Virus record (IMG/VR): IMGVR_UViG_3300020050_008099
Origin: an uncultured virus (IMG/VR IMGVR_UViG_3300020050_008099)
Taxonomy: Duplodnaviria; Heunggongvirae; Uroviricota; Caudoviricetes
Length of the DNA: 20,000 bases
Direction: 5' to 3' (one strand)
Position 1 is the stretch's first letter, and each line of letters begins with the position of its first letter. The notes below the pieces were generated by a model. The model was not told the origin of the DNA. It saw only the letters and a list, made by a program, of their open reading frames with translations, and made no database searches. This document shows positions 400 to 20,000 of this stretch, in pieces. The position numbers and the translations under genes are program-made.

Positions 400-434
400 T
401 TATTGGTAAGACTTGATCAACGTCTTGTCTTGTC

Positions 435-1217: not shown

Positions 1218-1256
1218 AGTAACCTTTCTGGGGCCAACATTTGTTGGGTAGCCATA

Positions 1257-3691: not shown

Positions 3692-3875
3692 TTAATTCAT
3701 CCCTCAACCGTTCCATACGTTTGTAAGCAGTTAGTTGACCCTGCAGTCTGTAAATAATGTGTGGGTCAACAGCCCCTTCAAGTTGGAGACGAAGTTCAAT
3801 GATACGAGAATTGACCCATTTGTGAAAATCTTCTTTCACCAAAGGTGTGTTAAGTGCTTGTTTAAGAAATTCCAC
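3672..3875 (-). CDS. Small hypothetical protein after portal
   Basis: 67 aa helical ORF (IYRLQGQL) overlapping both neighbours in the operon. Confidence 0.7.
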   Translation of the reverse strand: MEFLKQALNTPLVKEDFHKWVNSRIIELRLQLEGAVDPHIIYRLQGQLTAYKRMERLRDELNGRETS

Positions 3876-5934: not shown

Positions 5935-5949
5935 ATTTCTTCCTGTGTA

Positions 5950-7383
5950 TTAGTAACCCAAAACCGGGTCAAAAGGTTCGTAAGATTTTTGACTTCTAAT
6001 ATCAATATCCCAAATACTTGATCTAGGACGAGACATACAACCATAACGAATAGCGTCGTAAATGTGGTCTTCTGACTTAGTATCAACATCTTCTGGGTTG
6101 TTTTTGTCAAGTGGGATTACTGGCAACTGCGCAATTGCATGTGTACAAGTGTTAAAAAAGACAAGCCCCGGTTCCCCAGTGTAATCATCTACTTGAAGTC
6201 TTTTATGAACTTGGTTTTTACCACTAATTCTAGCACCACGGCTTCGGTCAGAAGGTCTCCAACGACATCCTCTTGCAATCATACGTTCTGCAATAGAGGG
6301 TCCAGTATCACCTCTTTGATGCCAGCAAGAGCTGTCAAGAACACCATAAGAGATTGGACCATCATCCTCTTCTAAATAAAGGATTATGTCTGCTAAGTCT
6401 TCTGCCAAAACTTTGTGTACGTACAATTCACGATAGACTATTAATTGGTCTTCTTCGTCTACAGCAAACCAAATAACTGCAGAGTGACTTCCATAACCAT
6501 AGTCACAAGCTCTGAAACGTCTCCACTGTCTAGGGATGTCAAAAGGTTCTACTACGTGAACGTTTCTGTTAAATTCAGGGAAAGCATTCCCTTCAATAAC
6601 ATCCCAATCTCCGTCAAGGAGTTTCCTACGTTCTGCCTCTCCAAGAGAGAGTAGGTTTGCCTCATAATCGCCAGAATCATACAAATAAGGGTTGTCAGAA
6701 AGTTTTGCCGGGATAAAACGTCTTTTAAAGAGGGGCTGACCCTCCTTAGAATGACCTTTTGGTCTTTTTAAAACTTCCCCTGTTTCAATGTCAGTCGCCC
6801 AAAAAGCTTTTCCCCAAGGTGCGGGGTCAACGAACATTTTTTTAACCCAGTTGTGGCCCGGACCTCCGGGGTTAGTCGTAGCCCGCATATACAGCTTTAA
6901 ATCTGTAGCGGTAGTTCTAAGACGAGAACGCATATAGTTCCACGTAAAAGGTGTCGGCCACTGGGTCAACTCATCAAAAGCAATGTACGTAAATGCTTGC
7001 CCTTGGTAACGAGAAACGTCTTGGTCTCTTTCAAGATATGACATCCACAATGTAGCACCAGAAGGGGCTGTCCATTGCATTTTTCGTTCAGACCAAGTAA
7101 TTCCCGGATAAGCTCTGGGGTAGAGTTCTTGGCTTTTCTGCACAAGTTCCCTTAATTCTTCAGTTGTTCTTCGGACAATTAGCCCTCTAAACTGCGGATG
7201 GGTCATATCTCTGAGTGCATCCGCTAAAATAGCGTAAGATTTACCACCCCCAGCGGCACCACCATACAAGACTTCTCGCTCATTTGCTGCAAGAAAGGTT
7301 GTTTGTGGGCCGGGGTTTGGTTTAAAAATCACATCTTTCTCAGCAATCTCCTCTGAGAAGACGTATTCAGGCAGAATCTCCAT
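5950..7383 (-). CDS. terL: Terminase large subunit (start uncertain: 7383 or 7509)
   Basis: Walker A YGGAAGGGKS, Walker B YIAFDE, coupling motif ATTNPGG, and RNase H-like nuclease motifs ACDYG and EDHIYDAIRY. Confidence 0.95.
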   Translation of the reverse strand: MEILPEYVFSEEIAEKDVIFKPNPGPQTTFLAANEREVLYGGAAGGGKSYAILADALRDMTHPQFRGLIVRRTTEELRELVQKSQELYPRAYPGITWSERKMQWTAPSGATLWMSYLERDQDVSRYQGQAFTYIAFDELTQWPTPFTWNYMRSRLRTTATDLKLYMRATTNPGGPGHNWVKKMFVDPAPWGKAFWATDIETGEVLKRPKGHSKEGQPLFKRRFIPAKLSDNPYLYDSGDYEANLLSLGEAERRKLLDGDWDVIEGNAFPEFNRNVHVVEPFDIPRQWRRFRACDYGYGSHSAVIWFAVDEEDQLIVYRELYVHKVLAEDLADIILYLEEDDGPISYGVLDSSCWHQRGDTGPSIAERMIARGCRWRPSDRSRGARISGKNQVHKRLQVDDYTGEPGLVFFNTCTHAIAQLPVIPLDKNNPEDVDTKSEDHIYDAIRYGCMSRPRSSIWDIDIRSQKSYEPFDPVLGY

Positions 7384-7744
7384 CGTCGGTTTGGGTGATT
7401 TTGGCTCCGATGTGGTCTTCTTCGAGCTGACGGATTTTTTCTTCGATCTTTTTGGTCCGTTCGGCCCAGTGTTTAAGAGAAGTTGCTCTTCGTTGCCTAG
7501 TTCGTTCACTTGCTAACCTTTTTCTTAAGCCTTCGTTAGAAATATACCTTCCGGTAATGTCAGTTAGCCAATTAGCTACTTCTCTTAACGAAAAACTTTT
7601 TACATGTTGTCTGGCTTTTTCTAAAGCCTCTAACTCAAAAGGGATTGGCAGGAGAATATCTGGGTCTTCTGGGTCTTCTTTGTAGCCAAAAGGGATTGTC
7701 CTAGAGATACGAGGGATTTTAAACCACTTCGTGTCTTCTGCCAT
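7367..7744 (-). CDS. DNA-binding protein upstream of TerL (PFGY + HTH-like)
   Basis: IPRISRTIPFGY...SLREVANWL...ISNEGLRKRL resembles recombinase-type winged-HTH DNA-binding segments. Confidence 0.7.
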   Translation of the reverse strand: MAEDTKWFKIPRISRTIPFGYKEDPEDPDILLPIPFELEALEKARQHVKSFSLREVANWLTDITGRYISNEGLRKRLASERTRQRRATSLKHWAERTKKIEEKIRQLEEDHIGAKITQTDDGDSA

Positions 7745-8203
7745 CTATTTACTCCAACTTAAGATTTTATCACACCAACCCAAAAGATCATCCTTATCTC
7801 TGTCAAGTTTCATGATATTAACTCTACGACAAACAAGCTGGATATTTCCCTCTTCGTAACCAAGGTCAGAGTTAATACGATCTATAGAGATATTAGTATC
7901 TATTTTACCTTGTCCACAAGTGTACGTCATTTTGACGCCAGAAATAGCACATAGTCCTTCTTGTGTGTTGTAAACAGATTTCAGATAGTCTAAAGTTAAG
8001 TGCCTACGTTCGGACTTTTTAACACACAAAGATTTTAAAAAATTTTCTACAGACCGTCCCCTATGAACAACACTGTACTTATGTTTATACACATATTTTG
8101 TTCTATAAGAAACACCACAAGTTTTACCACAAAAAATTTGAGTTTTTCTGCTTGGATTTTGTATAAACACTTTAGAGCAATATTTACACTCTTTTTCTTG
8201 CAT
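7745..8203 (-). CDS. His-Me finger (HNH-like) homing endonuclease with N-terminal Cys cluster
   Basis: CKYC..FCGKTC Zn motif plus GLCAISG...SIDRINSDLGYEEGNIQLVCRRVNIMK beta-beta-alpha nuclease pattern. Confidence 0.8.
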   Translation of the reverse strand: MQEKECKYCSKVFIQNPSRKTQIFCGKTCGVSYRTKYVYKHKYSVVHRGRSVENFLKSLCVKKSERRHLTLDYLKSVYNTQEGLCAISGVKMTYTCGQGKIDTNISIDRINSDLGYEEGNIQLVCRRVNIMKLDRDKDDLLGWCDKILSWSK

Positions 8204-8204
8204 A

Positions 8205-8455
8205 CTAGGACCGTTTAGGTTGGCGTCTGCGATTTACTGCCCTCGAAACAATTCTGAGATTAGAGGGGGAATTATCACGGGGCCGAAAATTTTTGTGGTC
8301 AATTTCTTTACCGTCGCCTTTATGAACCTTGCCAGATTTCATGGCCTCTCGTCTTGCTTTATTACGAGCAGCACGATCTTTTTTACCTTTTTCGGTTCCG
8401 TGAGTTGCTTGGTATTCTTTTCGAGCTACTGATAGTCGCGCTTACGCTCGGCCAT
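8205..8455 (-). pseudogene. Small HNH endonuclease interrupted by an 8-nt insertion/frameshift
   Basis: GGAGG RBS, then ATG frame MAERKRDYQ*. The body in another frame reads RKEYQATHGTEKGKKDRAARNKARR...GDGKEIDHKNFRPRDNSPSNLRIVSRAVNRRR*. Removing CAGTAGCT restores RDYRKEY and an 80-aa HNH protein. Confidence 0.75.
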
Positions 8456-9086
8456 CTCTTACCTCCAATCTCTCTGGGTTATTGTTAGCAACTGCTCGAC
8501 AAATTTCAATAAACTTATCAAGTGGTATATCGGACCTCCAAGAGTTTACGGCCCGACACACAAGTTGTATATTATCAGTCGTATAAGATTGGCCTGCATT
8601 AACTCTATCTACAGAAGCATTAGACCAATATTTAGTTCCGTTAGTCAATAAACAAGTTAAGGGAAGGCCACTAATAGCACACTTACCACCTTGTTTGTGT
8701 AGTAGGGCTAGTAGGTCATCTCTCTTAAGACCGTCCCTTTTCCTCCCAGACGAGTATAGTAGTCGAGAAAGATACCTAGACCAATTACCAGATATGTTTT
8801 CATACTGACTTTCCGTCGTCACAGAATCTGTAACGTATTTCCAACGGCCTTTGCAAGAGGGATTACAAAATTTTTGTTTTGTAGTTTTTGCGTTAAAAAT
8901 TCTCTGACAAACAGGGCAAGTTTTTTCCTCTTTAGGGAGGGTTAACTGAGCATCTAATCTCGCTTGACAAGCTTCTTTATAGGTTTCAAAAACACCAAGA
9001 TGTGTTTTTACACCCTTGTAAGACACAAAAGCAGCCCATTTTTTGCCTTTTGAGAAGACCCCTGCCACACGTTCTTTACTTGGCAA
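8442..9086 (-). CDS. AP2-domain + Cys-cluster + HNH-like homing endonuclease
   Basis: N-terminal GV...KKWAAFV...HLGVFETYKEACQAR (AP2-like), CPVC/FCNPSC, and GKCAISG...SVDRVNAGQSYTTDNIQLVCRAVN. TTG start with GAGG upstream. Confidence 0.8.
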   Translation of the reverse strand: MPSKERVAGVFSKGKKWAAFVSYKGVKTHLGVFETYKEACQARLDAQLTLPKEEKTCPVCQRIFNAKTTKQKFCNPSCKGRWKYVTDSVTTESQYENISGNWSRYLSRLLYSSGRKRDGLKRDDLLALLHKQGGKCAISGLPLTCLLTNGTKYWSNASVDRVNAGQSYTTDNIQLVCRAVNSWRSDIPLDKFIEICRAVANNNPERLEVRDGRA

Positions 9087-9088
9087 GG

Positions 9089-9448
9089 TTATTCCCCCTC
9101 TTTTGCGGGGAGGATGAAGATTCCATTACTTGTAATGTCAATCTTTTCTGTTTTAACTACCCCAGCTCTGTCTAACACCTCTTTAGAGGCTGCTAGAATC
9201 TCTTTATTTCCAAGAGCCATAGGTGTGTCTAAAATACCCACCATTTTTACAGCAGCTTTAGGACCATTTCTGGCAATGAAGTCTTTTGTCGCTTCAATAA
9301 TCTCGTCTTGTAAGACTTTTACAAGCTGTGTAGTTGGGTAGGTGTCTGAGTAACCAGCAAGTCTTTTTGCTTCTACCACATTTCCGGCAGCTTGGTCAAA
9401 CAGAACCTCTAAAAATAGTTTTTGCTGGTCACTCAGTTTTCTTGTCAT
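9089..9448 (-). CDS. Probable terminase small subunit
   Basis: LSDQQKLFLE...EAKRLAGYS HTH N-terminus and AASKEVLDRAG C-terminal motif typical of TerS; located in the packaging cluster. Confidence 0.7.
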   Translation of the reverse strand: MTRKLSDQQKLFLEVLFDQAAGNVVEAKRLAGYSDTYPTTQLVKVLQDEIIEATKDFIARNGPKAAVKMVGILDTPMALGNKEILAASKEVLDRAGVVKTEKIDITSNGIFILPAKEGE

Positions 9449-9984
9449 TTTTTGTACTTTAACAAACGAGCCTTAGCAGCAGCTCTTTTAGCTGCGTCTT
9501 TTTCGGCCTCAAGCTTAGGATTAGTTCCATTAAGGATAGCTCTTCCAAGAGCGGCACCGGGAACAGGGGTTTTGTTGACAGTGGCTTCATCAACCCTGTT
9601 AAGGGCTTTTGTTGCACGATCTGTAATAGCTTTAACACCTGCGTTCTTAACTGCAAGAGAGCGGCTACGCTGTGATTTGGAAGAGGGCGTAACACCTTGC
9701 TTAGGAATGGGCATTGTTGCAACATCCCCTTTTTTATAACCTTTTGCAGCGTCTTTGGCTACGGGGGTTTTTGCTTTAGGCTTGCTAGCAGATTTTGTTG
9801 CTGGTGCAGCAGTGGGTTCGGGGGCTTTTAAGATATTTTTTACTTTATCCGAACCACTCCAAATTTTTCCATTTGCGTTATAACCGCCCACAGAACCACC
9901 ACTTTTATTTTGTACGGAATCGCCTTTAACGACGTATCCAGCAGCTTCTAAAGCTGCTTTTTGAGATTTTGAGATTTTAGCCAT
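9445..9984 (-). CDS. Lys/Ala-rich basic hypothetical protein
   Basis: ORF track gives 9445-10053. The ATG at 9984 (MAKISKSQK) has a purine-rich upstream sequence and lies in the AT-rich backbone; ATGA overlap with TerS. Confidence 0.7.
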   Translation of the reverse strand: MAKISKSQKAALEAAGYVVKGDSVQNKSGGSVGGYNANGKIWSGSDKVKNILKAPEPTAAPATKSASKPKAKTPVAKDAAKGYKKGDVATMPIPKQGVTPSSKSQRSRSLAVKNAGVKAITDRATKALNRVDEATVNKTPVPGAALGRAILNGTNPKLEAEKDAAKRAAAKARLLKYKK

Positions 9985-10069
9985 TTTTTCTCTTTCAATT
10001 TCAGGCTCAATGCCCATGTTCCGAAGCGCCGACTCGACCTGTTCTCGCTGCACGATGAACCCCTGAATT

Positions 10070-10150
10070 TGGTGGAGCAGGAGGGTCGCGTGGTCCCCCT
10101 CTCACGGCTGCGTCTGCCTACCGCGCCCCCTTCCCGCTTGAGGCTGCCCC
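10070..10150 (-). ncRNA. tRNA-like cloverleaf with alanine acceptor identity (G3:U70, A73, CCA)
   Basis: RNA reads GGGGCAG CCUC-AAGCGGGAA-GGGG G CGCGGU-AGGCAGACGCA-GCCGUG A GAGGG-GGACCACGCGA-CCCUC CUGCUCC ACCA. No canonical T-loop or 7-nt anticodon loop. Confidence 0.6.
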
Positions 10151-10385
10151 GAAGGTTCGGTTCCTCTTATTGAGCCACCGAAAAGCCGTCATCGTCCCTG
10201 CTTTCGCGCTATTGCCTGCCCGTGCCGTTCGGCCCCGGACTCACGCTGGGGATGGACGCTCCCCGCTGCCTCAGTCGCGGTCCTTCCCCTTGACCCGGCA
10301 GTCGAGGAAGGGCGCGGCAGGGGCACCGGGGCTTGTGTAGAACGGCGTCACGCTGCCGGGTGCGATCTGGTCATAGTTGATGTTT
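10151..10385 (-). ncRNA. GC-rich structured RNA downstream of the tail fibre gene
   Basis: Long-range helices GCCGUUC/GAACGGC and GCCCCGG/CCGGGGC, an inner hairpin CUUCC-UCGAC/GUCAA-GGAAG, ACCCGGCA/UGCCGGGU complementarity and a GCGAAAGC tetraloop on the minus strand. Confidence 0.5.
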
Positions 10386-10392
10386 TGGGTCA

Positions 10393-13104
10393 TCAGAACC
10401 ACCTTCCGATTGCCGTGAGTGAAACAGTCCGATCAGCGGCTACCACTTCGCTGGTGATCGTTGTCGCATGCCAAAAACACCGCGTCGCGCTATCTGGATA
10501 GGCGTTAGCCCCAAACGCTGTGGAATTTCTGACCGACACAAGTACCGCAACCTCTGCTGATACAAAATTCGCCGGGTACGTCCAAAGTTGCCCGGGTGTG
10601 CGAAACCCGCCGTGAAGCGCCATTGTGCTGGCGAGGCTTTCGGTTTCCGTCTGCCAACAAATCTGGGTGCCGTCGGCGAAGCGGACGTACTCGCCTGCCC
10701 CCGTCACTCCGCGCTGCACGATGCCGCCCGTCGGCACACCGCCGCTTTGGCTCACCGGAGCGACGATGTTGCCCTGATTGTAGACCATATGCCCGTCGGT
10801 CGCCGCTGCCGGAACGCCGTCCAGCACGCGCAGTTCCGACGCATTGGCCCAGAGCCGCACGTCGCCGTATTGGCGGGGGGCCACGAATGTGCCCAAGGCG
10901 TTGTCACCGGCGGCGTCGATATCCCAGAGCGGCCCGTTGACCGCGCCGGATTGGGCCGATGTGCCCTTGAACACGCCCTTCATCATTCCCCAAAGGATGC
11001 GCGATGTAAGGCCGTTGATCGTGACCGATTGGGTATCCGCAGGAACTTCGCAGTGCTGGACAAACCAGCAGTTTGCGTAATGCTCGCCGACCGTCGTGTC
11101 GGTCAGGGTCAGGCTGTATCGCGGCCCGCCCATGACGATGACCGCCTCGTCCGGGGCGCAGGCGCAGACCTCCTGATGATACTGGTGGATCGTGTTGCTG
11201 CGGCAATCGCTAATGATCGCGGGGCCGCTCTTGGTGAGGTAAACATCGTCGCCATGAATTTTGATCTGGGACAGATAGGCGTTGGTGCCCGCGCCAAGAA
11301 ACAACCCGCCGCCGTAGTGCTGCTCGATCTGGATCGCGCTGAACTCGATATCGTTGACGGGCGGCCCAGGTTGATCGGCGTATTCTGCGGGCTGCGGGCC
11401 GCAGTGCAACGTCATCGAGGTGGTGAACACGCCGCTGGTGCTGCGGGTCGCCGCAACCGCAAGGCGCGCCGTCGATGCGTCGATTACTTCGGCGATGGTC
11501 GTGTGCAGGGTGCGGCCATCGTCCCCGGCGTTGACTAGCCAGACCATTCGGCCAACGTCGCCATCGTCCAGGACTTCCGCGTCCAGCGTGATTTCGTCCG
11601 ACGCGGCGGTGCTGGTGAAGCGGGCCTGCGCGAAGTGGATCGCGGCGCTGGAACTTGACGCAAACGGCGCGGTTTCAAAGGTTCCCGTCGTGGCACTGGT
11701 GACGGTCGCAATCCTGTTCGCCATCCCCCTGCTGTCCGAAGAACTTTCGGGATAGGTCGGCACGGCCTTGGTCAGGATGATGGCCGCGCCCACGTCATCC
11801 GCCGAGACCGTGCCGCTCGAAAGGGTGAAGTTCAGGCTGCTGGCGGTGATCGACGCAACCAGTTCATCGTCCCGGCGCAGGTACTGTGTGCCGCCCGACC
11901 CCAGCCGCATGTTATAACCGTCGCTGTTGAACGAACGCGTCAGGTAAAGCGCCGAGCCGCCGTAGTATGTGATGTTGAAATTTGCCAGCGTCCAGCCCAG
12001 GTTGTTGACCCCGAGGATGCCATTCGATGTGTCTTTTGTCAGCGTGGAGTAGTAGCCCCTGGCTGTCCAGTTGCGCAGGATTACATCTTCGCTATCTTCG
12101 GTGGACCCCATCCAGTTAAATTTCATCCACCACTGATCGCAACCCATCCGTTCCCACCGGATTTCGCAGCCCTTATCGCTGTCGCCGTAGATGGTGATGC
12201 CACTGGCCGCAACAGTTTCGCCTTGAGTGAAATCCAATTCAGCGGAGCAGCGATAAATCTTGTCAACGTATCCAACTTTCGCCACGCGGGCGACGTAATC
12301 CGCCCACTCCAACAGCGCCGGTGTGTCCAGCGCAACGTTGTTGCCGGGCGCGCCGAAATCTCCCGGCGTCACTACCCCGGCTGGCCTCCATTTCCGCCCG
12401 TTATTCGCCGTGATAGGCCCGTCCGCATCTGCCACCCAAACGCGCCCCTCAACTACAGCCGTGTTGACCGGTTCAGGCAGGTTGGCCGCAATAAAGCTTG
12501 CCCGTGTGTCAAAATCCGCCCGGTTGCCTTCATCAAACGGGATAGGCCGGGGCACCAGATAGGAGACACGATCACCGACGCGCAGCGCCTCGTTGAACGT
12601 CACCTCATCGCCCGCGACGGTGTAACCAACACCGTAGGTCTCAAACACCCCGTTGCGCGTCAGGATAAGCTTGTGATTGCCCGGATCAAAGGCCAGCGGG
12701 AACACCGCGCCCGCCGTCTCGACTACGAAGCTGTGAACCTCGTTCAAGGCCATGCTGGCAAGGACGTCGGCGGCAGCGGCAGCTGCCAGCGCATCGTCAG
12801 CGGCGTCTCCGGCATAGCCCTGCGCTTCATCGCGGGCGGTTTCAGCCAGCAAGCGATCAGCCTCTGCGGCGGCGGCATCCAGCCCGGTTTGCACACGGTC
12901 CGCTGCGGTTGCCGTGCGGTCAAGGCCGGTCTGAACCCGGTCAGCGGCGGTGGCGGAAACATCAAGGCCGGTCTGCACCCGATCTGCGCCAGTGGCCGTC
13001 GCATCCGCGCCCGCCTTGGCCGCGTTAGCCTCTACATCCGAAAGGATGTTATTAATTTTTGACCTGACAGAAGCTCCGGTCTCACCATTCTCAATTTGTG
13101 TCAT
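10393..13104 (-). CDS. Tail fibre/tailspike receptor-binding protein
   Basis: 903 aa. N-terminal 14-aa coiled-coil repeats, VTPGDFGAPGN..DTPAL entry to a pectate-lyase-like beta-helix, and C-terminal GEYVRFADGTQICW...LTAIGRWF fibre-tip domain. Confidence 0.85.
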   Translation of the reverse strand: MTQIENGETGASVRSKINNILSDVEANAAKAGADATATGADRVQTGLDVSATAADRVQTGLDRTATAADRVQTGLDAAAAEADRLLAETARDEAQGYAGDAADDALAAAAAADVLASMALNEVHSFVVETAGAVFPLAFDPGNHKLILTRNGVFETYGVGYTVAGDEVTFNEALRVGDRVSYLVPRPIPFDEGNRADFDTRASFIAANLPEPVNTAVVEGRVWVADADGPITANNGRKWRPAGVVTPGDFGAPGNNVALDTPALLEWADYVARVAKVGYVDKIYRCSAELDFTQGETVAASGITIYGDSDKGCEIRWERMGCDQWWMKFNWMGSTEDSEDVILRNWTARGYYSTLTKDTSNGILGVNNLGWTLANFNITYYGGSALYLTRSFNSDGYNMRLGSGGTQYLRRDDELVASITASSLNFTLSSGTVSADDVGAAIILTKAVPTYPESSSDSRGMANRIATVTSATTGTFETAPFASSSSAAIHFAQARFTSTAASDEITLDAEVLDDGDVGRMVWLVNAGDDGRTLHTTIAEVIDASTARLAVAATRSTSGVFTTSMTLHCGPQPAEYADQPGPPVNDIEFSAIQIEQHYGGGLFLGAGTNAYLSQIKIHGDDVYLTKSGPAIISDCRSNTIHQYHQEVCACAPDEAVIVMGGPRYSLTLTDTTVGEHYANCWFVQHCEVPADTQSVTINGLTSRILWGMMKGVFKGTSAQSGAVNGPLWDIDAAGDNALGTFVAPRQYGDVRLWANASELRVLDGVPAAATDGHMVYNQGNIVAPVSQSGGVPTGGIVQRGVTGAGEYVRFADGTQICWQTETESLASTMALHGGFRTPGQLWTYPANFVSAEVAVLVSVRNSTAFGANAYPDSATRCFWHATTITSEVVAADRTVSLTAIGRWF
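12855..12995 (-). repeat. Three and a part 42-nt (14-aa) tandem repeats AT(A/G)ADRVQTGLD
   Basis: Protein reads ATGADRVQTGLDVS-ATAADRVQTGLDRT-ATAADRVQTGLDAA-AAEADR. Confidence 0.85.
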
Positions 13105-13107
13105 TAA

Positions 13108-13293
13108 TTAGTCTTCCCAAACATATTCATCATTCCAGCCCGTGTCATCACTCCAAATATGGTCTACCACCTTTGGAACATAAGCAGTTGTTCTGCTCAC
13201 CCTTTGATAAGAGGTCTTTAATGACAATCTCTCTGAATTGGAGAGGGTAACGGTTTTAGGAAATTCACCTAATTGATCAACGAAACAGCCCAT
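13108..13293 (-). CDS. Small hypothetical protein
   Basis: ATG at 13293 with GAGGG upstream; ends WSDDTGWNDEYVWED just before the fibre gene. Confidence 0.55.
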   Translation of the reverse strand: MGCFVDQLGEFPKTVTLSNSERLSLKTSYQRVSRTTAYVPKVVDHIWSDDTGWNDEYVWED

Positions 13294-13317
13294 AACCAAC
13301 CCTCATCAAATTCATCC

Positions 13318-13464
13318 TTACCTGTAAACTTTTGCAGGGGTGCGAAGCTTTTCCACTTTTCTAATTAATAGTTCCCACTGGTCTTTTGTGGGGGCGTCTT
13401 GCTTAAACACGGTGAGAGCTTCTACAAACCCATCAAACCAATTTACAAATTCTGTTTGTGTCAT
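13318..13464 (-). CDS. Small hypothetical phage protein (48 aa)
   Basis: Manual translation MTQTEFVNWFDGFVEALTVFKQDAPTKDQWELLIRKVEKLRTPAKVYR; the F..W..GF.E....PT..QW pattern recurs in small phage proteins. Confidence 0.65.
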   Translation of the reverse strand: MTQTEFVNWFDGFVEALTVFKQDAPTKDQWELLIRKVEKLRTPAKVYR

Positions 13465-13563
13465 CTAAATTCTTTCTGAGGGAATAAGCAAGTTTGCTAC
13501 GGGCATCCGCCCAATCTAGTATATTTTATCGAAGTAAGCAGACTTTTCGCCACTCAAGAAATC

Positions 13564-13638
13564 TGGTGCTCTCACCCAGAGTTGAACTGAGTTCTACGGG
13601 TTACAAATCCGTTGCATCACCTTCAATGCTTTAAGAGC
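13564..13638 (-). tRNA. tRNA-Thr(UGU)
   Basis: GCTCTTA AA GCAT-TGAAGGTG-ATGC A ACGGA-TTTGTAA-CCCGT AGAA CTCAG-TTCAACT-CTGGG TGAGAGC ACCA. Confidence 0.9.
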
Positions 13639-14111
13639 AAGTTCTTTATATTCCATATGGTTTCGTTACACTACACTCATATGTATTACTATTAATATTT
13701 CTTAATATATTACTGGGGGCGTAACTAAGGTTTTTCTCTCAACCCCCTACCCCCAATACTATATGGCACTTTTTAGGGGTTTTGTTCCTTGAAAATAAAA
13801 AAATATTTTTTAACCCTCGTTTAAAATACTTTTTTGATCGAATATCGTCGAAGCAAAGCGTTGCTTCTCCTCTTACGTAAACAAGAGGACGAAAAAGGAA
13901 AGAGGGCTATATTTCTCAACCATAGCGAAGGAGCTTGGAGCCTTGTGTCGAAGTGGTTGTCAATGAAAAACCCATTTCTGTGGGAAAGTGTATATATAAC
14001 AACGCCTTAACCCCCCTTGGCCCATACCCCCCATACCCCCTATGCCTGTTTGCATACATAATCCCGAGTGATTTAGTCGGGTATTTGACTACACCTCTCC
14101 CCTCTCCACTG

Positions 14112-14201
14112 TAATTCAACGTTAAACAATCCAGAGAAAACTAGTTTAGTGCTAAACAATCTGCCCTATCCGCCGATAGACTAGTTTAACATTAAACTAT
14201 C
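14112..14201. repeat. Three 20-bp quasi-palindromic repeats (GTTTA-N4-TAAAC core)
   Basis: taattcaacgttaaacaatc (14112), tagtttagtgctaaacaatc (14142), tagtttaacattaaactatc (14182). Confidence 0.7.
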
Positions 14202-14769
14202 TATTGCCTGATTAGGTCAATGCTATTGCCCGACCTTCATACGCCCCATTAAAACCGCTTTGAAAATGCGTCTAAGCCTTTCGGCCATCACACCCTAAAA
14301 CAAATCGACTTGACACATAGGCGAACAATTCCGGTTTTCCCTATGTGATTCGCTATGTCCAGACACAAACCCTAGTATACCTTGTTATAGCATCACATCA
14401 CAGATTCCCCTATTTGTTACATCCTTTGTAACATTCCGTTACAATGCCTCTTTACTAGGCGATATTTATTTGAAGCCCCATTGCAGATTCCCTTCGACAG
14501 AGAATCCGCCCATATCTGATTCGTCCCTTCCTTTTCGTTCCTATCACATTCCCCTTGACGAATCGCTTGCTTTATGTCACGCGCAGGCCCGTTTTTTCCG
14601 CATGATCAAAAGATAACATTCTAAACTAATCAGTTCAAAAATAGGGCTATGCGAATCGTTTCCGTTCTGTCAAACAGGCTTCACCGGACGGCAGGCTAGC
14701 CGGAAGGGACTAGGGCCATGGGCTCTATGGAAAGGGGAAAGGGCGCTGGCCATAATAGCGCGAAAGGGC

Positions 14770-14803
14770 TTGACATAAGAGGCGAATCGCCTTAGGTGTT
14801 AAG
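14770..14803 (+). promoter_or_regulatory. Putative sigma70-type early promoter with GANTC in the spacer
   Basis: TTGACA at 14770, CGAATCG inside the spacer, TAGGTG/GTTAAG -10 candidates; upstream of the first rightward ORF. Confidence 0.5.
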
Positions 14804-14970
14804 TCAGCGAGAGGAAAGCTGGATTAGCTAAGACGGGCTTAGGCTTGTGGGCTAGGAAGGCTGGAAAGCTTGCAAATATATGGCAAAGCGCAAGCTTTGT
14901 TTGTTCTTTAAGAAACAATAGAACATATGTTCTATTCATGGCTATGGGATAGCTAGAAAAGGGGAATGCC

Positions 14971-15375
14971 ATGGCGACTCTGTCGTCTAAGGACAAGCTC
15001 ACTTTGAAACTGTCTGCCCAACGGGTGGAACGGTGGAATTGTGAGCGAATGAAACCTGCGAAGGATGTTTCCCGTTGCAAAGGCATTGTCTTTGCGCCGG
15101 GGCAGGAAAAGGAATCTCTGGAATATGGTGACAAAGATGTCATTGTTTCCAGTGGTGACAAGATGCGGAATGCTGATGCCAAGACGGCAAGGCAATTCGT
15201 GCGGCGTCATATGGGGTTTTCTGACTATACCCCCGATGCCAGCGAGATTCAGCCCATTGGCGCAGGCAAGCGCAAGAATAAGCTTGTCTATGTCGTGGGC
15301 GCTGACCGGGCTTCTGACAAGCCCAACAAGGCTTCGGCCTTCAAGAAAATTCCTTGGAAAACTCGGGGGGCATAA
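14971..15375 (+). CDS. Early hypothetical protein (134 aa)
   Basis: AAAGGGG RBS, ATG start, followed by a terminator-like hairpin. Confidence 0.75.
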   Translation: MATLSSKDKLTLKLSAQRVERWNCERMKPAKDVSRCKGIVFAPGQEKESLEYGDKDVIVSSGDKMRNADAKTARQFVRRHMGFSDYTPDASEIQPIGAGKRKNKLVYVVGADRASDKPNKASAFKKIPWKTRGA

Positions 15376-15397
15376 GCCCCCCTTCCCTTCCCTTTTC
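15365..15397 (+). terminator. Possible intrinsic terminator
   Basis: GGGGGC-ATAA-GCCCCC hairpin followed by TTCCCTTCCCTTTT. Confidence 0.5.
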
Positions 15398-15399
15398 TA

Positions 15400-16075
15400 G
15401 CTAGGCTTTGTAAGGACATTTGATTGTGTCTTTACATGGCCTTCCTACGGCCTTTTGAGAAATGTCTGGCAGGGATTATTCCCTTCCTAGAGAGACCTGT
15501 TGACGCCCAAGGCTAACGCTAAGGGGTCATAGAAGGGGCTTGACGGGAATCTGTGGAATGCTGCCAGCAACGCTAGGATAGCGTTAAATATCCCTTGGCG
15601 TCACGCGATAGCGCAAGTGACAGCGAAGCCCCAGTAGGGCTAGCTGTTCATGGCTAATCCGATGTATCGGGCAGCTTGCGTAAAAGGCGGACAAAAATAG
15701 ACGCCAATGTGGTGCAGAGGAAATGCTGCACCAATACCACATAAACAATCCCTTAACGATAAGATTAACGGTTTAGGACAAGAATTCCTATTATCATGGA
15801 ATGTTGCGCCTTCTCGTCAGTGCTGATTCGGGCAGGATTGGAACAACTGAAAGGGAGGGGAAACCCTCTTTAACGGAAGTTTGTGTGGAAAGCAACGCAA
15901 TTGGCTAGCCCCTCCTTAAGAGGGCCAACCCTTTACACTGGTGAGTGTAGGGGAGGGGCTGGCCTTGCATTGATGAACCTTCTAATCTTCTTCGCTTCAA
16001 CCTTCTTGAAAGAAACCGATAATTTATGGTGTGTAGGTCTTGAAGCTTGTTGAGGGTGGAGGGTTCTTCCATGCA
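15400..16075 (+). ncRNA. Large structured non-coding region (~670 nt)
   Basis: No credible ORF. Helices include TGTAAGGACAT/GTGTCTTTACA, CTGGCAG/CTGCCAG, TGACGCC-CAAGG/CCTTGGCGTCA, GGTGCAG/CTGCACC, GGCTAGCCCCTCC/GGAGGGGCTGGCC and GAACCTTCTA/TGGAGGGTTC. Confidence 0.55.
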
Positions 16076-16086
16076 AGGGGGTTAAA

Positions 16087-16272
16087 ATGAGACATGTGAC
16101 AATTACTGACCATTTTGGAGAGGGTCTTTGTGTTTATGAGGCCACCTACGAATCGCCTGAAACATACAAGGGCGATGATCTGAGAAAGATTGCTGGCCCT
16201 TTTGAAAGCTGGTCTGAGGCGGAGGAAGAGGCAGAGACCTACGCGAATGGGGATGAAATCTGCATCCTCTGA
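16087..16272 (+). CDS. Small acidic hypothetical protein (61 aa)
   Basis: AAGGGG RBS; GPFESWSEAEEEA motif. Confidence 0.7.
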   Translation: MRHVTITDHFGEGLCVYEATYESPETYKGDDLRKIAGPFESWSEAEEEAETYANGDEICIL

Positions 16273-16355
16273 CATTCCAGCGGACAAGGCACCAAAACAT
16301 GGTGCCTTGCTAGATGCAATGTCGCATCCTGCCAAAGCATTGAAGAGGTGTTATC

Positions 16356-16988
16356 ATGGCAAAAGAAAAAGGGCCTGCCAAGGCCAGCTTCGTTGATCAG
16401 GTCAACGACTATTGGGGCCGTCGGTCGGCCAATGGCACCGAAGGGCTGGCCCTTGTGGGCAAGCTGATGCTTCGGTTTGCCGACTATGGGGATTGGGATG
16501 CTCTGGCCCGGTTCGTCGTCAAGGCGGGCCAGCACGGCCAGCGTGAAAAGGTGGTGAAGATCATCCGGGCCGGGTTCGGCAATCATGTCACCTTCAAGAC
16601 CAATGCCAAGCACCCGGCGGGCGGGGAGTTTATCAAGGTGAACTGGACCGGGGAAAAGTTCCCCATCCGTCAGAGCAACACCTTCGGCATCGTCAAGGCG
16701 GCCATCGACAAGGGCCTGTCGTGGGACGACAGGGATTTTCAGAGGGAACTGCCCTCGGCTGACAAGAAGGCCCGGCAGGTTTCGGATGAGGCCACCAAGA
16801 AGGTGGTCAAGCATCTGGAAACCTATTGTGGCAAGCTGGCCGCTGATGGTTTCAATGTGGGTGAGGTTCTGGCCGCTTTGCAGAAGGAACTGGCGGCCAA
16901 GGTGAAGGCGGCCACCCCTGTCCAGAAAGCAGCACCTGTCCAGAAGTCGATGGTCAACGGTGTCACCGTCTATGAACCCAGCTTCTAA
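16356..16988 (+). CDS. Early hypothetical protein (210 aa)
   Basis: GAGGTG RBS; strongly GC3-biased codons suggest high expression. Confidence 0.85.
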   Translation: MAKEKGPAKASFVDQVNDYWGRRSANGTEGLALVGKLMLRFADYGDWDALARFVVKAGQHGQREKVVKIIRAGFGNHVTFKTNAKHPAGGEFIKVNWTGEKFPIRQSNTFGIVKAAIDKGLSWDDRDFQRELPSADKKARQVSDEATKKVVKHLETYCGKLAADGFNVGEVLAALQKELAAKVKAATPVQKAAPVQKSMVNGVTVYEPSF

Positions 16989-17024
16989 TGCTGGGGGATA
17001 GTGACAAGGTGCAATACCTAAAGG

Positions 17025-17054
17025 AACAGGGGGGCATTCGCTCCCCTGTCTCTT
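17025..17054 (+). terminator. Possible terminator hairpin
   Basis: ACAGGGG-GGCATTCGCT-CCCCTGT followed by CTCTT, after the 210-aa gene. Confidence 0.4.
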
Positions 17055-17152
17055 GGGTTACGTGGGCTTTGGAGAGGCATTCCAAGGGCTACCAAGTGTT
17101 GCTGATGGAAGAGAAAATCCTCATCTATCGGCTTCTTTCGTAGGAGAATACT

Positions 17153-17278
17153 ATGAGTGCAGAATTTAACCCGACTTTGGTGTGGTTCATCGGGGCTTGT
17201 TCCTGTTGGTATCACGGGGTGGGATTTTGGATGGGACTCTTCTGGCCTTGGTATCTTGGAGGGGTCTTCCTGCCCTAG
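17153..17278 (+). CDS. 41-aa Trp/Gly-rich membrane peptide
   Basis: AGGAG RBS; MSAEFNPTLVWFIGACSCWYHGVGFWMGLFWPWYLGGVFLP. Confidence 0.6.
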   Translation: MSAEFNPTLVWFIGACSCWYHGVGFWMGLFWPWYLGGVFLP

Positions 17279-17303
17279 GTTAAACACCCTCCCCATTTAG
17301 TTT

Positions 17304-17393
17304 GCCTGTGTAGTCATTAAGGGGCCGCCCTTCTTGCAGGGTTGGGCAGCGTAGCCTGCAACTACGTCGCACGTTCAAATCGTGGCACAGGCA
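17304..17393 (+). ncRNA. Aberrant tRNA-like RNA / pseudo-tRNA
   Basis: Acceptor GCCTGTG/CACAGGC-A, TA at positions 8-9, D-like GTC..GGC, T-arm CACG-TTCAAAT-CGTG, two central hairpins with TGC-containing loops; no encoded CCA. Confidence 0.65.
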
Positions 17394-17398
17394 ATTTT

Positions 17399-17697
17399 AA
17401 TGGGGAGACCTATCATCAATCTTCCGTGCTGTAGTGTTCAGTTACTTCTTTGAGCGAAATAACACTGGACACGAATTGTTGCCGGAACATTCTAGAATGT
17501 CTTTCCCCTAGGGGTGGGCATATTCAGAGTTTATTGGGGTGTCTCTGTGTAGAAATAAAACCCCTCCAAACTAGTTGGATAACTTATAAATAGGTGCCTT
17601 GGTGAACCACTGGCGTTCCATGTGGGTGTAAGGATCACCCGAACAAAACTCCTCAGGGCTTGGATGAGTCCAACTACCCTTGGCTAACTCCCCCATA
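17399..17697 (+). ncRNA. Multibranched structured domain (~300 nt)
   Basis: Closing helix ATGGGGAG/CTCCCCCAT, ACCTAT/ATAGGT, and hairpins TAGTGTT/AACACTG, TCCAA/TTGGA, GGGTG/CACCC, TTGGA/TCCAA. Confidence 0.45.
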
Positions 17698-17964
17698 TAC
17701 TTGACTAACCTTTTAAATCCTTGTGAGGAATCCTCTGTGAGAAACATCAGAGACGGCCCGTAGCTGATTTTTTAATTTTCTTAATGGCGAGGAACGGTAA
17801 TGGGAATACTGCGATCTACTGAAGGTTGGAGCTAACCGTCATAAAAAAGCTCCTCAGTCTTAGTGCAGTCCTGTAAATAAGCACACAGATCGGCTGAGTT
17901 TTTAATTTTAGAGTCTCATAATGTAAAACTGTGTCCTGAGCATGACAAGAAAAGGCTCTCCTAT

Positions 17965-18042
17965 GGCGGTGTGAAGGGAATTGGTATACCTTTCTCTCTT
18001 AAAAAGAGAAGTCTGTCGGTTCGAGTCCGACCACCGCTACCA
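17965..18042 (+). tRNA. tRNA-Leu(UAA), short variable arm
   Basis: GGCGGTG TG AAGG-GAATTGGTATA-CCTT TCTCT-CTTAAAA-AGAGA AGTCT GTCGG-TTCGAGT-CCGAC CACCGCT ACCA. Confidence 0.92.
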
Positions 18043-18049
18043 ATTGCAT

Positions 18050-18412
18050 TTTGGCGGAAAGACAGACCTAAGCGTGCTGACCCCACGTTAAGCCATAGAT
18101 GGCGGTAGTCTTTCCCCCTGAGTGTGGTTAAGGCGAAAGAACGCAAGACCCTACTTGTCAAGGGAGATAACGGCCAAGGTAAAGCTCGCCCGTTTAGGGG
18201 ATGTACGGCGCAACCGTTGAAAGAGTGACCCGAGGTGGGGCAATGGCCCCTTAAAATTATGACAAGACTGCACTCAACCTGTCCCCTATAAAATGGGGTC
18301 TGCCGCGCTAATCTCGTCGCGGGGTATAAGTCCGTATAGAGCCTTTAATTAGGTCAGGTATACGGGGTCATGAGTCCTCTGTCCAAACGGGGACGGCTAA
18401 CGGGATGCCAAA
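18050..18412 (+). ncRNA. Large pseudoknotted RNA (~365 nt), unidentified
   Basis: Closed by TTTGGC/GCCAAA. Domains GGAAAGAC/GTCTTTCC and TGAGTGTGGTT/GACTGCACTCA, plus three hairpin loops complementary to distal segments. Confidence 0.65.
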
Positions 18413-18430
18413 TCAACAATGGAGGATGAA

Positions 18431-18559
18431 ATGAACAAAGGTTGGGCTTGGGCCATGGCTGTTAACATTGTTCATGGGTTTCATATGAGGGGCTTTGACC
18501 CTGAAGAGGAACAGTTCGAGGTTGAATGTTTCCTCGTAAGTGGGACTGTTAACACCTAA
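18431..18559 (+). CDS. 42-aa hypothetical peptide
   Basis: GGAGG RBS; MNKGWAWAMAVNIVHGFHMRGFDPEEEQFEVECFLVSGTVNT; the stop abuts the hammerhead. Confidence 0.55.
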   Translation: MNKGWAWAMAVNIVHGFHMRGFDPEEEQFEVECFLVSGTVNT

Positions 18560-18614
18560 GCACCACTGATGAGTCTTGAAGAGACGAAACCAAGAGTCTT
18601 TCTTGGTATGGTGC
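18560..18614 (+). ncRNA. Type I hammerhead ribozyme
   Basis: GCACCA CTGATGA GTCT-TGAAG-AGAC GAAA CCAAGA-GTCTT-TCTTGG TA TGGTGC. Full CUGANGA/GAAA core, three perfect stems, GUA triplet; predicted cleavage after A18608. Confidence 0.93.
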
Positions 18615-18860
18615 CGAGTCTTGAACGTGTAACATAAGATATGGGCGCATTAGGGGCGGGTGGCCACCTTAACCTAATGATTTATGACCCAAAAGGGGTG
18701 TTACATGCTATGGTTCCTTAAGCCTCCGAGGAATTTCCTCTGGGGAAGCTGGTGATTTTGCAATAAGCCAGTGAGTCAAGAACTCCCAACCCAAACACCT
18801 CGCAGATTGTAGGTATGTTTGCGATAGAGAAAAGTCCCTCAAGTTGGTGGGGGCATCTGT

Positions 18861-18936
18861 TCTGATGTAGCTCAATTGGCAGAGCAAAAGATTGTTAATC
18901 TTTAGGTTATAGGTTCGAGTCCTATCATCAGAGCCA
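18861..18936 (+). tRNA. tRNA-Asn(GUU)
   Basis: TCTGATG TA GCTC-AATTGGCA-GAGC A AAAGA-TTGTTAA-TCTTT AGGTT ATAGG-TTCGAGT-CCTAT CATCAGA GCCA. Confidence 0.95.
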
Positions 18937-19005
18937 CTACATTTTATTGGGCAGACTACGGCCCGTTGCGTAGTCAATCAAACTGAATGTAGCAAAGGAA
19001 ACCCC

Positions 19006-19128
19006 ATGAAATTTCGTATGAACGCCTCTGGTCATAAGGTTACCACCAACGCTGGCACTGAAGAGGTCAAAGAGCAAGACTGGTGGGCAATGCTCAAACG
19101 TCAAGTGGTGGCTTCTCAAAAAGCTTGA
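19006..19128 (+). CDS. 40-aa hypothetical peptide
   Basis: AAAGGA RBS; MKFRMNASGHKVTTNAGTEEVKEQDWWAMLKRQVVASQKA. Confidence 0.55.
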   Translation: MKFRMNASGHKVTTNAGTEEVKEQDWWAMLKRQVVASQKA

Positions 19129-19152
19129 AAAACGCATGATTGAGGTGAAGCC

Positions 19153-19398
19153 ATGACCGACCTGACCAAAATCGACCAGCCTTTCGGATCGCTGGACATT
19201 GAGACGAAGCTGGCGCTGCACCGTGCCCAATACGAGGGGAAGGTGATTGAGTGCATAAGCAGCAGTCACAACAAGTGGGGCATAACCATAACCCCTGCGT
19301 GGTGGCCGCAGTTCACCTACCGCCTCCAACCCGAACCCCTGCGCGACATCAACATGCCTTGGAACGAGAGCCTGATCCGCCGCCCGGAGGGTGTGTGA
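19153..19398 (+). CDS. Hypothetical protein (81 aa)
   Basis: GAGGTG RBS; P.W....TYRLQP motif; TGATG coupling to the next gene. Confidence 0.75.
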   Translation: MTDLTKIDQPFGSLDIETKLALHRAQYEGKVIECISSSHNKWGITITPAWWPQFTYRLQPEPLRDINMPWNESLIRRPEGV

Positions 19399-19628
19399 TG
19401 GGCGAACTGGCCAAGTTTTTGCAGTGGGTCATTTCTGACGAAGCGCCGGAGTGGGTTAGCCTCATTGCTGGTGGGATCGCCTCGGCGCTAGTTGTGTCCG
19501 CTTTTATGGGTGCGTTTTTACTTTTTGTTATCCTTGCGGCCACCGGACATTACGCCCTTATGGCTCTCATGTTTCCGGGCGCACCAGTGGCGATTTGCTA
19601 CGTGGCCTATCGGAGGGCGACGAAATGA
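19398..19628 (+). CDS. Small membrane protein (76 aa, two hydrophobic segments)
   Basis: GGAGG RBS, ATG overlapping the upstream TGA; MGELAKFLQW...ICYVAYRRATK. Confidence 0.7.
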   Translation: MGELAKFLQWVISDEAPEWVSLIAGGIASALVVSAFMGAFLLFVILAATGHYALMALMFPGAPVAICYVAYRRATK

Positions 19629-20000
19629 CCCATCGCTTTACGAACTGTACCTTTGATCTTCGCGGCGCAGACTATGCCTGCGTTTCACGCGGCGACGAAT
19701 TTGAGATCGGTTACATCGGGGAAGGCGACCGCGTGTTGATCGACGGCGACACGCTGGACTTTACCGGCCTGCATATCCTTGGGCCTGTCGCGCTGGCCGA
19801 CCGTATCAAGGCGGCGATTGCTCTGGAATGCTACGCGATGACGACTGAGCGCCAAGCCGCGATGGAGAAGGCGTTCTGCATGGGGCGGGATGCGGCGGCT
19901 GCATGGCATACAATGCAAGCGGAGACCGCCATGGGGGCGCTTTGCTGCGGAAGCGATAACTACGAAATTCGTCGCGCAGGGCGGGTTAGTGACATGCACC
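19625..20000 (+). CDS. Hypothetical protein (partial, runs off window)
   Basis: GGAGG RBS, ATGA overlap; MTHRFTNCTFDLRGADYACVSRGDEFEIGY... stays open to the window end. Confidence 0.7.
   Translation, partial: MTHRFTNCTFDLRGADYACVSRGDEFEIGYIGEGDRVLIDGDTLDFTGLHILGPVALADRIKAAIALECYAMTTERQAAMEKAFCMGRDAAAAWHTMQAETAMGALCCGSDNYEIRRAGRVSDMH

Follow-up and report, generated by a model that had tools for sequence, protein, structure and literature searches.

In phage T4, a tRNA gene cluster and small stable RNAs are processed from polycistronic precursors by host RNases, and a pseudoknot in the leader of the gene 32 mRNA serves as a translational operator. Prophage hammerhead ribozymes flank genes and are proposed, in the available part of the report, to process long phage transcripts (PMC3088659). 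Theta ribozymes, which are hepatitis delta virus (HDV)-like, are described in the available text as abutting the 3´ ends of phage tRNAs and cutting the trailer (PMC10879173). Structured RNAs are also reported next to PhoH2 genes in the accessible portion of a preprint (bioRxiv 10.64898/2026.10.21.760802). Here, we analyse positions 15376-19005 of a 20,000-nucleotide (nt) stretch of DNA from an uncultured virus (IMG/VR record IMGVR_UViG_3300020050_008099; the whole stretch is called the window), in which two tRNAs, a hammerhead motif and three conserved structured RNA elements occur among short open reading frames (ORFs).

We favour, with fair confidence, the reading that this region is transcribed early as one polycistronic RNA, which carries structured leaders acting in cis, tRNAs and a self-cleaving ribozyme. 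The reading draws on sequence features, conservation and covariation, from which we infer co-transcription, self-cleavage and the cis-regulatory roles. The promoter-proximal early unit would be read as a long + strand RNA in which short ORFs alternate with functional RNA elements. A structured RNA of 0.5-0.6 kb, which comprises a core domain and a three-way junction and is made of modules shared by the phage family, would act in cis on ORF61/ORF210, and a 57-nt pseudoknot would control the translation of ORF210 or the stability of its mRNA. tRNA-Leu(UAA) and tRNA-Asn(GUU) would be freed by host RNase P and 3´ processing enzymes. A leader of ~120 nt with a terminator-like hairpin would control ORF46. 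The hammerhead would cut after A18608 and part the ORF46 message from the downstream tRNA-Asn RNA; after cleavage, the 3´ end of the message would be capped by ribozyme stems II and III, and the downstream RNA would start with a 5´-OH. The stretches 17408-17964 and 18615-18860 would be spacer. The coordinates of all features are listed in Table 1.

An earlier note on this DNA had proposed a precursor that is cut by a ribozyme and RNases, with everything on the + strand. The + strand carries every RNA of 15376-19005, as that note had stated, and every ORF from 14971 onward. A long precursor that is cut is a reasonable model, given a single strand, real tRNAs with a hammerhead core, and three conserved covarying elements. 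Because the conserved elements lie directly before ORFs, cis-regulatory leaders fit at least as well as the free stable RNAs. The picture given in the earlier note is right in outline and overstated in extent.

Four gaps with a total length of 2.07 kb interrupt the coding content of the region (15376-16086, 17279-17964, 18043-18418 and 18560-18860). TAA, TAG and TGA are present in all six frames of each gap, with 2 to 17 stops per frame, so the gaps are non-coding under any stop-codon reassignment. Small ORFs or a changed genetic code filling the gaps are ruled out by the presence of all three stops in every frame, and the estimate of ~1.1 kb of coding sequence in ~3.6 kb is fair. For comparison, eight metagenome loci were retrieved via an alignment of ORF210 homologs; loci and contigs are referred to by L numbers. 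Among 182 stop-to-stop frames of at least 25 amino acids in 13100-20000, none that lies wholly in 15400-16240 or 17150-18900 matched a relative's locus. Comparison with nine loci by blastn revealed no DNA conservation in 15400-16290 or 17000-18860 except for tRNA-Asn, and the homology of the first gap was visible only by multiple alignment and covariance models.

The first gap alone is exceptionally stable as RNA. The + strand of 15386-16086 folds at -273.8 kcal/mol (z -5.89, 0 of 20 shuffles as stable), and the - strand folds at -224.7 kcal/mol (z -3.75). The corresponding values are z -1.02 for 17279-17964 (3 of 20 shuffles as stable), -1.12 for 18043-18418 (10 of 100) and -0.68 for 18615-18860 (48 of 200). 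Sliding 150-nt windows agree. About half of the apparently empty DNA is without sign of structure, and the near-continuous hairpins and long-range helices that had been seen throughout the region do not extend beyond the first gap as unusual stability (z -5.89 versus -0.7 to -1.1).

The structure in the first gap corresponds to a large RNA that is found in related phages at the same place. In relatives, this RNA has fold z scores of -7.01 (L009) and -6.74 (L003), with 0 of 100 shuffles as stable in each. Multiple alignments of the gap RNAs (A2 and A3) contain long conserved blocks, and a helix scan on relatives only identified several helices that changed on both sides, including the 5´ hairpin and a long-range CCGUC/GACGG helix. 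Since the 5´ hairpin covaries, the hairpin itself is probably transcribed. On folding, the + strand gains 49 kcal/mol over the - strand, and G.U pairs are kept in the relatives, which argues that the large RNA works as a + strand RNA.

Two modules of the large RNA show covariation. The core domain was modelled from six relatives only, with the window left out (model R1). In these six sequences, 83.4% of cells are paired and 10 of 26 pairs are compensatory, values that none of 500 shuffles reach; slid controls pair at 30-44%. The three-way junction was modelled from L003, L004, L005, L006 and L008 only, again with the window left out (model R2), and this model scores the junction of the window at 38.7 bits (E 6.5e-10 over 119 kb). 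In a six-sequence alignment fitted to the model, from which three weak matches (E 0.26 to 0.69) were left out, the paired cells amount to 87.5% and 11 of 19 pairs show compensatory changes, with 0 of 500 shuffles reaching that. The junction and loop bases are invariant, and the minimum-free-energy fold of the whole first gap draws the same three-way junction. A scan with R2 found no junction in L007, L009 and L010. Pattern searches of IMG/VR for the junction returned the L003 contig only, and those for the core domain returned four matches, namely three false ones in SSB genes and the L003 contig again.

A second covarying element precedes ORF210. The pseudoknot is formed by S1 (16285-16293/16301-16309, 9 pairs), S3 (16313-16317/16324-16328, 5 pairs) and a knot helix, in which the S3 loop (16318-16322) pairs with 16272-16276 at the 5´ end of the element. 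Across seven sequences, six of them distinct, pairing is kept in 95.6% of cells and compensatory changes affect 10 of 19 pairs, including three in the 5-pair knot helix. L006 and L008, whose 130 nt upstream of the gene showed no counterpart, were excluded from this count. In 500 shuffles, the percentage paired, the compensatory counts and the covariation score were never reached, and 166 shuffles had at least as many further pair types; slid controls pair at 30-47%. The percentage rises to 98.9% without L004, which is devoid of the second hairpin, and G.U pairs are kept on the + strand. The element is most likely a translational or stability operator for ORF210. These differences, and its loss from one near relative of the window, suggest that it is common in the family but dispensable.

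The ~120-nt motif before ORF46 is shared with phages outside the family. Pattern searches of IMG/VR located one copy of the motif per genome in two other phages, one of 169 kb (represented by four identical contigs) and one of 50 kb (L027), together with five false matches in coding DNA (L025, L029, L030, L032 and L034). These copies are 76% identical to the window over 86-119 nt in genomes that are otherwise unrelated, and the motif is intergenic in all three phages. The downstream genes differ. In the window, the motif lies between tRNA-Leu and ORF46; in the 169-kb phage, a winged-helix ORF stands before it and a small ORF (67 aa) and tRNA-Asn come after it; in the 50-kb phage, it begins ~25 nt after a perfect TTGACA-17-TATAAT promoter and precedes phoH. 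A hairpin and a U-rich run follow the motif in each case. The two other phages fold into the same architecture. Their 7-pair closing helix P1 is CCCUUGG/CCAAGGG in one and UCCUGCG/CGCAGGA in the other, which differ at three positions with the pairing kept, and hairpins P5 and P6 covary too. In wastewater contigs, the pair that closes P6 is G-C instead of A-U, a compensatory change made by two substitutions that occur jointly (18205 A>G and 18217 U>C). This covariation comes from three sequence types and one wastewater variant, with helices read by coordinates; MAFFT left the middle of the motif unaligned. A short, very deep wastewater contig spans 18125-18277, and the motif has no Rfam match. 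At low to moderate confidence, we take the motif for a candidate leader of the attenuator or riboswitch type that regulates in cis; in another phage it heads a phoH transcript, which suggests that it is probably an attenuator or a riboswitch-like switch.

As the main alternative, the large RNA, and perhaps also the 120-nt motif, could work in trans as an independent non-coding RNA of a new class, similar in kind to GOLLD and ROOL. Once freed from the precursor, such an RNA would target the host or a phage protein (ORF210, for example), in takeover, anti-defence or an RNA-protein particle. Its length of ~0.55 kb, its fold z scores of -6.7 to -7.0 in relatives, its several multi-stem junctions and its GNRA-type loops are consistent with this explanation, and CUAAG...UAGG sequences within it resemble tetraloop receptors. 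In L009, the large RNA ends in a 16-pair terminator-like hairpin, and in L007 its end before the ORF210 leader is likewise terminator-like. tRNAs lie nearby in the phage, as the available text describes for GOLLD and ROOL (PMC5737381). Conversely, no element of the window matches GOLLD or ROOL, which the earlier note had named as large RNAs beside phage tRNAs, or another Rfam 15 large-RNA family (E<=10), and the loci of eight relatives have no such match either (E<=1). The large RNA starts at the stop codon of the ORF134 homolog, where no promoter was called, and its covarying 5´ hairpin would itself be transcribed. The modules are not all kept together, given that the junction is absent in three loci and the core is barely recognisable in the window. 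We consider a trans-acting role rather unlikely. The wider proposition, in which the 0.55-kb RNA is a new trans-acting ornate class, perhaps with ORF210, and the 120-nt motif is a new travelling riboswitch- or ribozyme-like class, is possible but doubtful. If it were true, the island would be a concentrated source of several undescribed functional RNA families.

The cleavage step of the cis-acting transcript that we favour depends on the hammerhead. Its core is complete, with CUGAUGA at 18566-18572, GAAA at 18586-18589 and a G-C pair closing stem II. A18589-U18607 corresponds to A15.1-U16.1 and A18608 to base 17, which places the predicted cleavage at GUA|U (18608/18609). In a descriptor search, the stems comprise 6, 5 and 8 uninterrupted pairs; loops close stems II and III, and stem I is open. 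Minimum-free-energy folding of 18540-18640 yields the same three-helix junction, and stem I passes through an internal loop into a 7-bp distal helix, which may allow a stem I-loop II contact in this single sequence. Among 600 shuffled strands, seven contained any hammerhead with stems of at least 3 pairs and one had a stem sum of at least 15, compared with 19 in the real sequence. The motif starts at the base that directly follows the stop codon of ORF46, and one near relative retains the region (contig 17920-18676, 63 differences). We class 18560-18614 as a hammerhead on its defining features, with predicted activity. The heptamer GAGUCUU occurs three times in 18573-18630, namely in stem II, in the stem III loop and just 3´ of stem I.

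Several observations count against this reading. The complete type I motif at 18560-18614 falls below every Rfam cut-off (Hammerhead_1, 18.4 versus 34 bits; RAGATH-1, 22.0 versus 56.3; HH9, 17.5 versus 52); the Rfam Hammerhead_1 alignment misplaces stem III. No hammerhead was found in L001-L010, of which L002 stops short of the region, apart from a weak candidate of type II, whose stems have 3, 3 and 5 pairs, and the exact 26-nt hammerhead pattern had 0 matches in IMG/VR. One wastewater relative appears to be without 18402-18851, which contains ORF46 and the ribozyme. The hammerhead lies 517 nt after tRNA-Leu and 252 nt before tRNA-Asn, distances that argue against a theta-type role in the processing of tRNA ends. 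In one wastewater relative's sequence, 16081-16337 is replaced by 13 nt, which removes the pseudoknot. The core domain is only weakly matched in the window: the best R1 match in 13600-19100 is the syntenic 15598-15708, at 10.8 bits with E 0.024 (5.5 kb, filters off) or E 2.2 (default filters). The 120-nt motif of the window forms 5 of 7 pairs in its closing helix, with two mismatches, and its fold is no more stable than shuffles (z +0.54 in the window, -0.90 and -0.30 in the homologs). Neither promoter-like sites (9 versus 5.7+-2.2 in shuffles) nor terminator-like sites (9 versus 6.5+-3.1) are in excess in 13600-19200, although a few individual sites are plausible. The junction count stems from an alignment that follows its own model, and with no more than 5 to 7 related sequences behind the covariation, its significance is overstated by the shuffle controls.

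The two tRNAs reported in the earlier note are recognised by ARAGORN and score above the Rfam cut-off. tRNA-Leu(UAA) is conserved downstream of the ORF210 homolog in six of eight loci. In the window and in L003 and L006-L010, this tRNA measures only 75-83 nt; it carries A73, its CCA is encoded, and the long variable arm of the usual bacterial tRNA-Leu is absent. The third, tRNA-like RNA (17304-17393) is a degenerate tRNA-like hairpin that fails ARAGORN at default settings and Rfam. It is called as a 90-nt tRNA-Cys(gca) only at lowered thresholds (-ps), has an acceptor stem and a T arm with the loop UUCAAAU, contains two U.U mismatches in the anticodon stem, and has no match to RF00005 at E<=10. 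A near relative is without exactly 17278-17407, and 17405-17418 copies 13 of 14 bases of the tRNA-Asn 3´ end; the sequence of 17289-17418 looks like tRNA debris. In the 169-kb phage, a sub-threshold tRNA-like match (L018 4353-4417, 26.4 versus 29 bits) directly follows tRNA-Thr.

The spacers change rapidly. Within 17408-17964, relatives replace 17652-17706 and 17774-17919, one deletion falls between two 17-nt direct repeats, and no homolog was found in the relatives' loci. In one relative, 18677-18905 is replaced by GT. In more distant relatives, small ORFs with ribosome-binding sites fill the space between ORF210 and tRNA-Leu. To judge by these comparisons, 17408-17964 and 18615-18860 look like fast-changing spacer with tRNA relics. 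The claim of several large structured RNAs holds in part: the large RNA of the first gap, the pseudoknot and the 120-nt motif are conserved and covarying, and the two spacers are without excess structure.

These same spacers are among the evidence for an ordinary early region, composed of decayed genes, tRNA relics, recombination scars, terminators and RNase III/E hairpins, with an inactive or incidental hammerhead. Two of the four gaps have no excess structure, near relatives have many indels there, namely 17278-17407, 17652-17706, 17774-17919 and 18677-18905, tRNA-like debris and direct repeats are present, distant relatives have small ORFs in the corresponding space, and the hammerhead is not conserved. 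However, simple hairpins would leave unexplained a conserved three-way junction with invariant bases, a pseudoknot with three of five compensatory knot-helix pairs, and a motif at 76% identity in three otherwise unrelated phages; the hammerhead has every core base and three uninterrupted stems. We consider this explanation improbable. That the elements act as DNA, as a replication origin, hairpin promoters or protein-binding sites, is very improbable: iterons and conserved blocks lie just upstream in 13640-14970, and the 5´ hairpin of the large RNA holds a promoter-like CTTGAC...TTAGGT that recurs at 14309 and 14769, but the + strand keeps G.U (T.G) pairs, whose counterparts on the - strand would be A.C, this strand folds 49 kcal/mol better than the - strand, the pseudoknot and the three-way junction have no known double-stranded DNA counterpart, and the elements occupy 5´ untranslated positions.

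Table 1. Features of the region and its immediate upstream border (positions of the window).
Feature	Coordinates	Strand	Remarks
GC hairpin GGGGGGC-AUAA-GCCCCCC, then U/C-rich run	15365..15383	+	Directly after ORF134 stop; 15301-15450 z -6.09
Large structured RNA	15440..15975	+	Diverged version of ~0.55-kb RNA conserved in related phages
Core domain of large RNA	15598..15708	+	CGAUAG, 7-bp helix, GGCUAAUCC, hairpin, then AAAAGGCGG
Three-way junction	15902..15966	+	Long closing stem, hairpin GGGCCAACCC, hairpin UUACAC..GUGUAG, junction UUAAGA
ORF61, doubtful or accessory gene	16087..16272	+	No Pfam/PHROG family, no match in relatives' loci
Pseudoknotted leader element, 57 nt	16272..16328	+	28 nt upstream of ORF210 start codon
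ORF210, conserved early protein	16356..16988	+	29 homologs
ORF51	16988..17143	+	tblastn matches in 3 of 9 loci, E 3e-7 to 2e-4 (weak)
ORF41	17153..17278	+	No tblastn match in 9 loci, no Pfam/PHROG family
Hairpin enclosing tRNA-like element	17289..17407	+	9-bp closing stem 17289-17297/17399-17407, drawn in gap fold
Variable non-coding spacer	17408..17964	+	z ~0 in sliding windows; 17-nt direct repeat at 17763 and 17893
tRNA-Leu(UAA)	17965..18042	+	ARAGORN; Rfam tRNA (RF00005) 53.4 bits, cut-off 29; encoded CCA
~120-nt multi-helix motif	18126..18259	+	Then GC hairpin 18237-18250 and UUAAAAUU
ORF46	18419..18559	+	GGAGG ribosome-binding site 5 nt upstream; no family, no match in relatives' loci
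Type I hammerhead (predicted)	18544..18634	+	Core 18560-18614; distal stem I extension 18544-18551/18628-18634
Non-coding spacer, hammerhead to tRNA-Asn	18615..18860	+	z -0.68; no evidence of function
tRNA-Asn(GUU)	18861..18936	+	ARAGORN; Rfam tRNA 74.1 bits, cut-off 29; encoded CCA

By its sequence, the window is an HMO-2011-like podophage from wastewater. Its large terminase subunit (TerL) is 72% identical to those of Puniceispirillum phage HMO-2011 and Roseobacter CRP phages, and the host names in the records of HMO-2011-type phages point to Alphaproteobacteria. The - strand ORFs of 435-13104 encode an SU10-type portal, the large terminase, HNH endonucleases and a tail fibre, and a tRNA-Thr(UGU) is located on the - strand at 13564-13638. 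The region 15376-19005 is the start of the rightward gene block and is presumably early. The order tRNA-Thr(-), ORF134, an ORF-poor gap of 0.6-1.0 kb, ORF210 and tRNA-Leu(UAA) is common to the eight metagenome loci. Contigs from four wastewater or activated-sludge runs, which are probably DNA, overlap in the same order (13644-15543, 15516-17142, 16978-17694 and 17421-19165). Since contigs from other samples span 13644-19165 in this order, the layout is no assembly chimera. Among the runs recorded as RNA, none was found to contain the stretch.

Outside these loci, the region has few counterparts. A blastn search with 13100-19200 against named phages matched the tRNA-Thr region only (1% of the query), and a Manatee Spring HMO-2011-type genome has no obvious island counterpart among its annotated features, on which genome the models were not run. 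Protein scans of IMG/VR gave no locus for ORF134 and one weak locus for ORF210, and the ORF210 alignment scanned against genome contigs gave two weak partial matches (E 6e-5 and 9e-5). ORF210 is predicted by AlphaFold2 with a mean predicted local distance difference test (pLDDT) score of 87.6. Its fold has no Foldseek match at E<=0.001 and a best VIA-align Z of 5.1; no Pfam or PHROG family was found, and the protein atlas returned phage hypothetical proteins only. ORF51 and its surroundings (16951-17175) have strong structure, with z from -4.6 to -4.9. Just after ORF134 lies the GC hairpin, which resembles a terminator or processing hairpin and has a near copy at 17029-17047.

Upstream of ORF134, a further 1.3 kb (13640-14970) without credible ORFs separates the divergent gene blocks and may be a regulatory or origin region. 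It contains two blocks conserved in relatives (13789-14038 and 14293-14447) and three iterons of 20-23 nt (14112-14202); three wastewater relatives have deletions of ~300 nt, from 14159/14202 to 14486/14528. On the + strand, the ORF134 leader (14640-14970) likewise has strong structure (z -3.6 and -3.8); it contains many GAAAGG motifs, and a terminator-like hairpin (14882-14901) forms its end. The position of this leader in L007 (E 5.7e-4) and L009 (E 0.008) shows weak matches to R1. A promoter-like CTTGAC..GCGAATC..TTAGG sequence recurs at 14309 and 14769 and is also present in L003, L004 and L007; in relatives, the promoter-like CTTGAC..TTAGG sequence doubles as the covarying 5´ hairpin of the large RNA. 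Elsewhere in the window, the GC content rises from ~0.40 (1-10000) to 0.58-0.65 (10001-13000, the tail fibre gene) and then falls back. The nearest record (G001) is identical to the window over 1-10332 only; together with the jump in GC content, this suggests that the tail fibre module has been exchanged. At the other end, the GC-rich small ORFs of 19084-20000 are matched in one wastewater run by contigs at a depth of 290-650, compared with ~10 elsewhere, which suggests that these genes are shared with far more abundant phages.

Phages are normally gene-packed, and ~2 kb of non-coding DNA at the start of an early operon is unusual. In the scan with Rfam models that the earlier note had suggested, the tRNAs scored above the cut-off, whereas no large-RNA family matched and the hammerhead was sub-threshold; the suggested comparison of homologous phage loci yielded compensatory pairs in the large RNA and the pseudoknot, and comparison with unrelated phages yielded them in the 120-nt motif. 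These three elements are absent from Rfam 15, yet they exhibit the conservation and compensatory changes expected of functional RNA. No description of them was found in Rfam 15 or in the literature covered by a non-exhaustive search. The region thus appears to hold at least three apparently undescribed RNA motifs beside known kinds (tRNAs, hammerhead and leaders), which riboswitch and ribozyme research could take up as new candidates. New RNA-based devices for control or host takeover, if real, would matter for phage biology, since HMO-2011-type phages infect abundant aquatic Alphaproteobacteria, and a hammerhead at a stop codon within a tRNA-bearing transcript would be a convenient test case for the purpose of phage hammerheads.

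The region resembles the T4 tRNA cluster, by analogy, in having co-oriented tRNAs and putative other small RNAs in what would be an early/middle transcript cut by host RNases. It differs in having two tRNAs only, which are interleaved with ORFs and accompanied by a ribozyme. The likeness of the pseudoknot to the T4 gene 32 operator would be one of function, with no sequence relation, and ORF210 is without a recognisable fold or nucleic-acid-binding domain. Compared by text with riboswitch or attenuator leaders and with the PhoH2-associated RNAs, as far as these are described in the accessible portion of the source (bioRxiv 10.64898/2026.10.21.760802), the 120-nt motif is likewise a compact multi-helix element at a transcript 5´ end that is followed by a hairpin and a U-rich run, and it precedes phoH once. 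In contrast, its three downstream genes are unrelated, and the phage phoH contains the PhoH domain only and is not PhoH2.

The predicted hammerhead shares with the prophage hammerheads, as they appear in the available part of their description, a full core and an intergenic position in a phage operon (PMC3088659). Unlike them, it is a single type I copy at the stop of a 46-codon ORF in a tRNA-bearing stretch, with a score below the Rfam cut-offs. With the theta ribozymes, in the available account, it has in common that a predicted self-cleaving ribozyme lies in a phage tRNA region, suggesting ribozyme-assisted processing, but it belongs to another class and its distances of 517 and 252 nt set it apart from the tRNAs (PMC10879173). 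The large RNA, measured against what the available text gives for GOLLD and ROOL, is similarly structured, is ~0.5-0.6 kb long and occurs in a phage with tRNAs nearby (PMC5737381). It fails both Rfam models and is so far confined to one phage family; compared with GOLLD and ROOL, it sits between two ORFs on the same strand, where it may be, instead of a separate gene, a leader or an intercistronic RNA.

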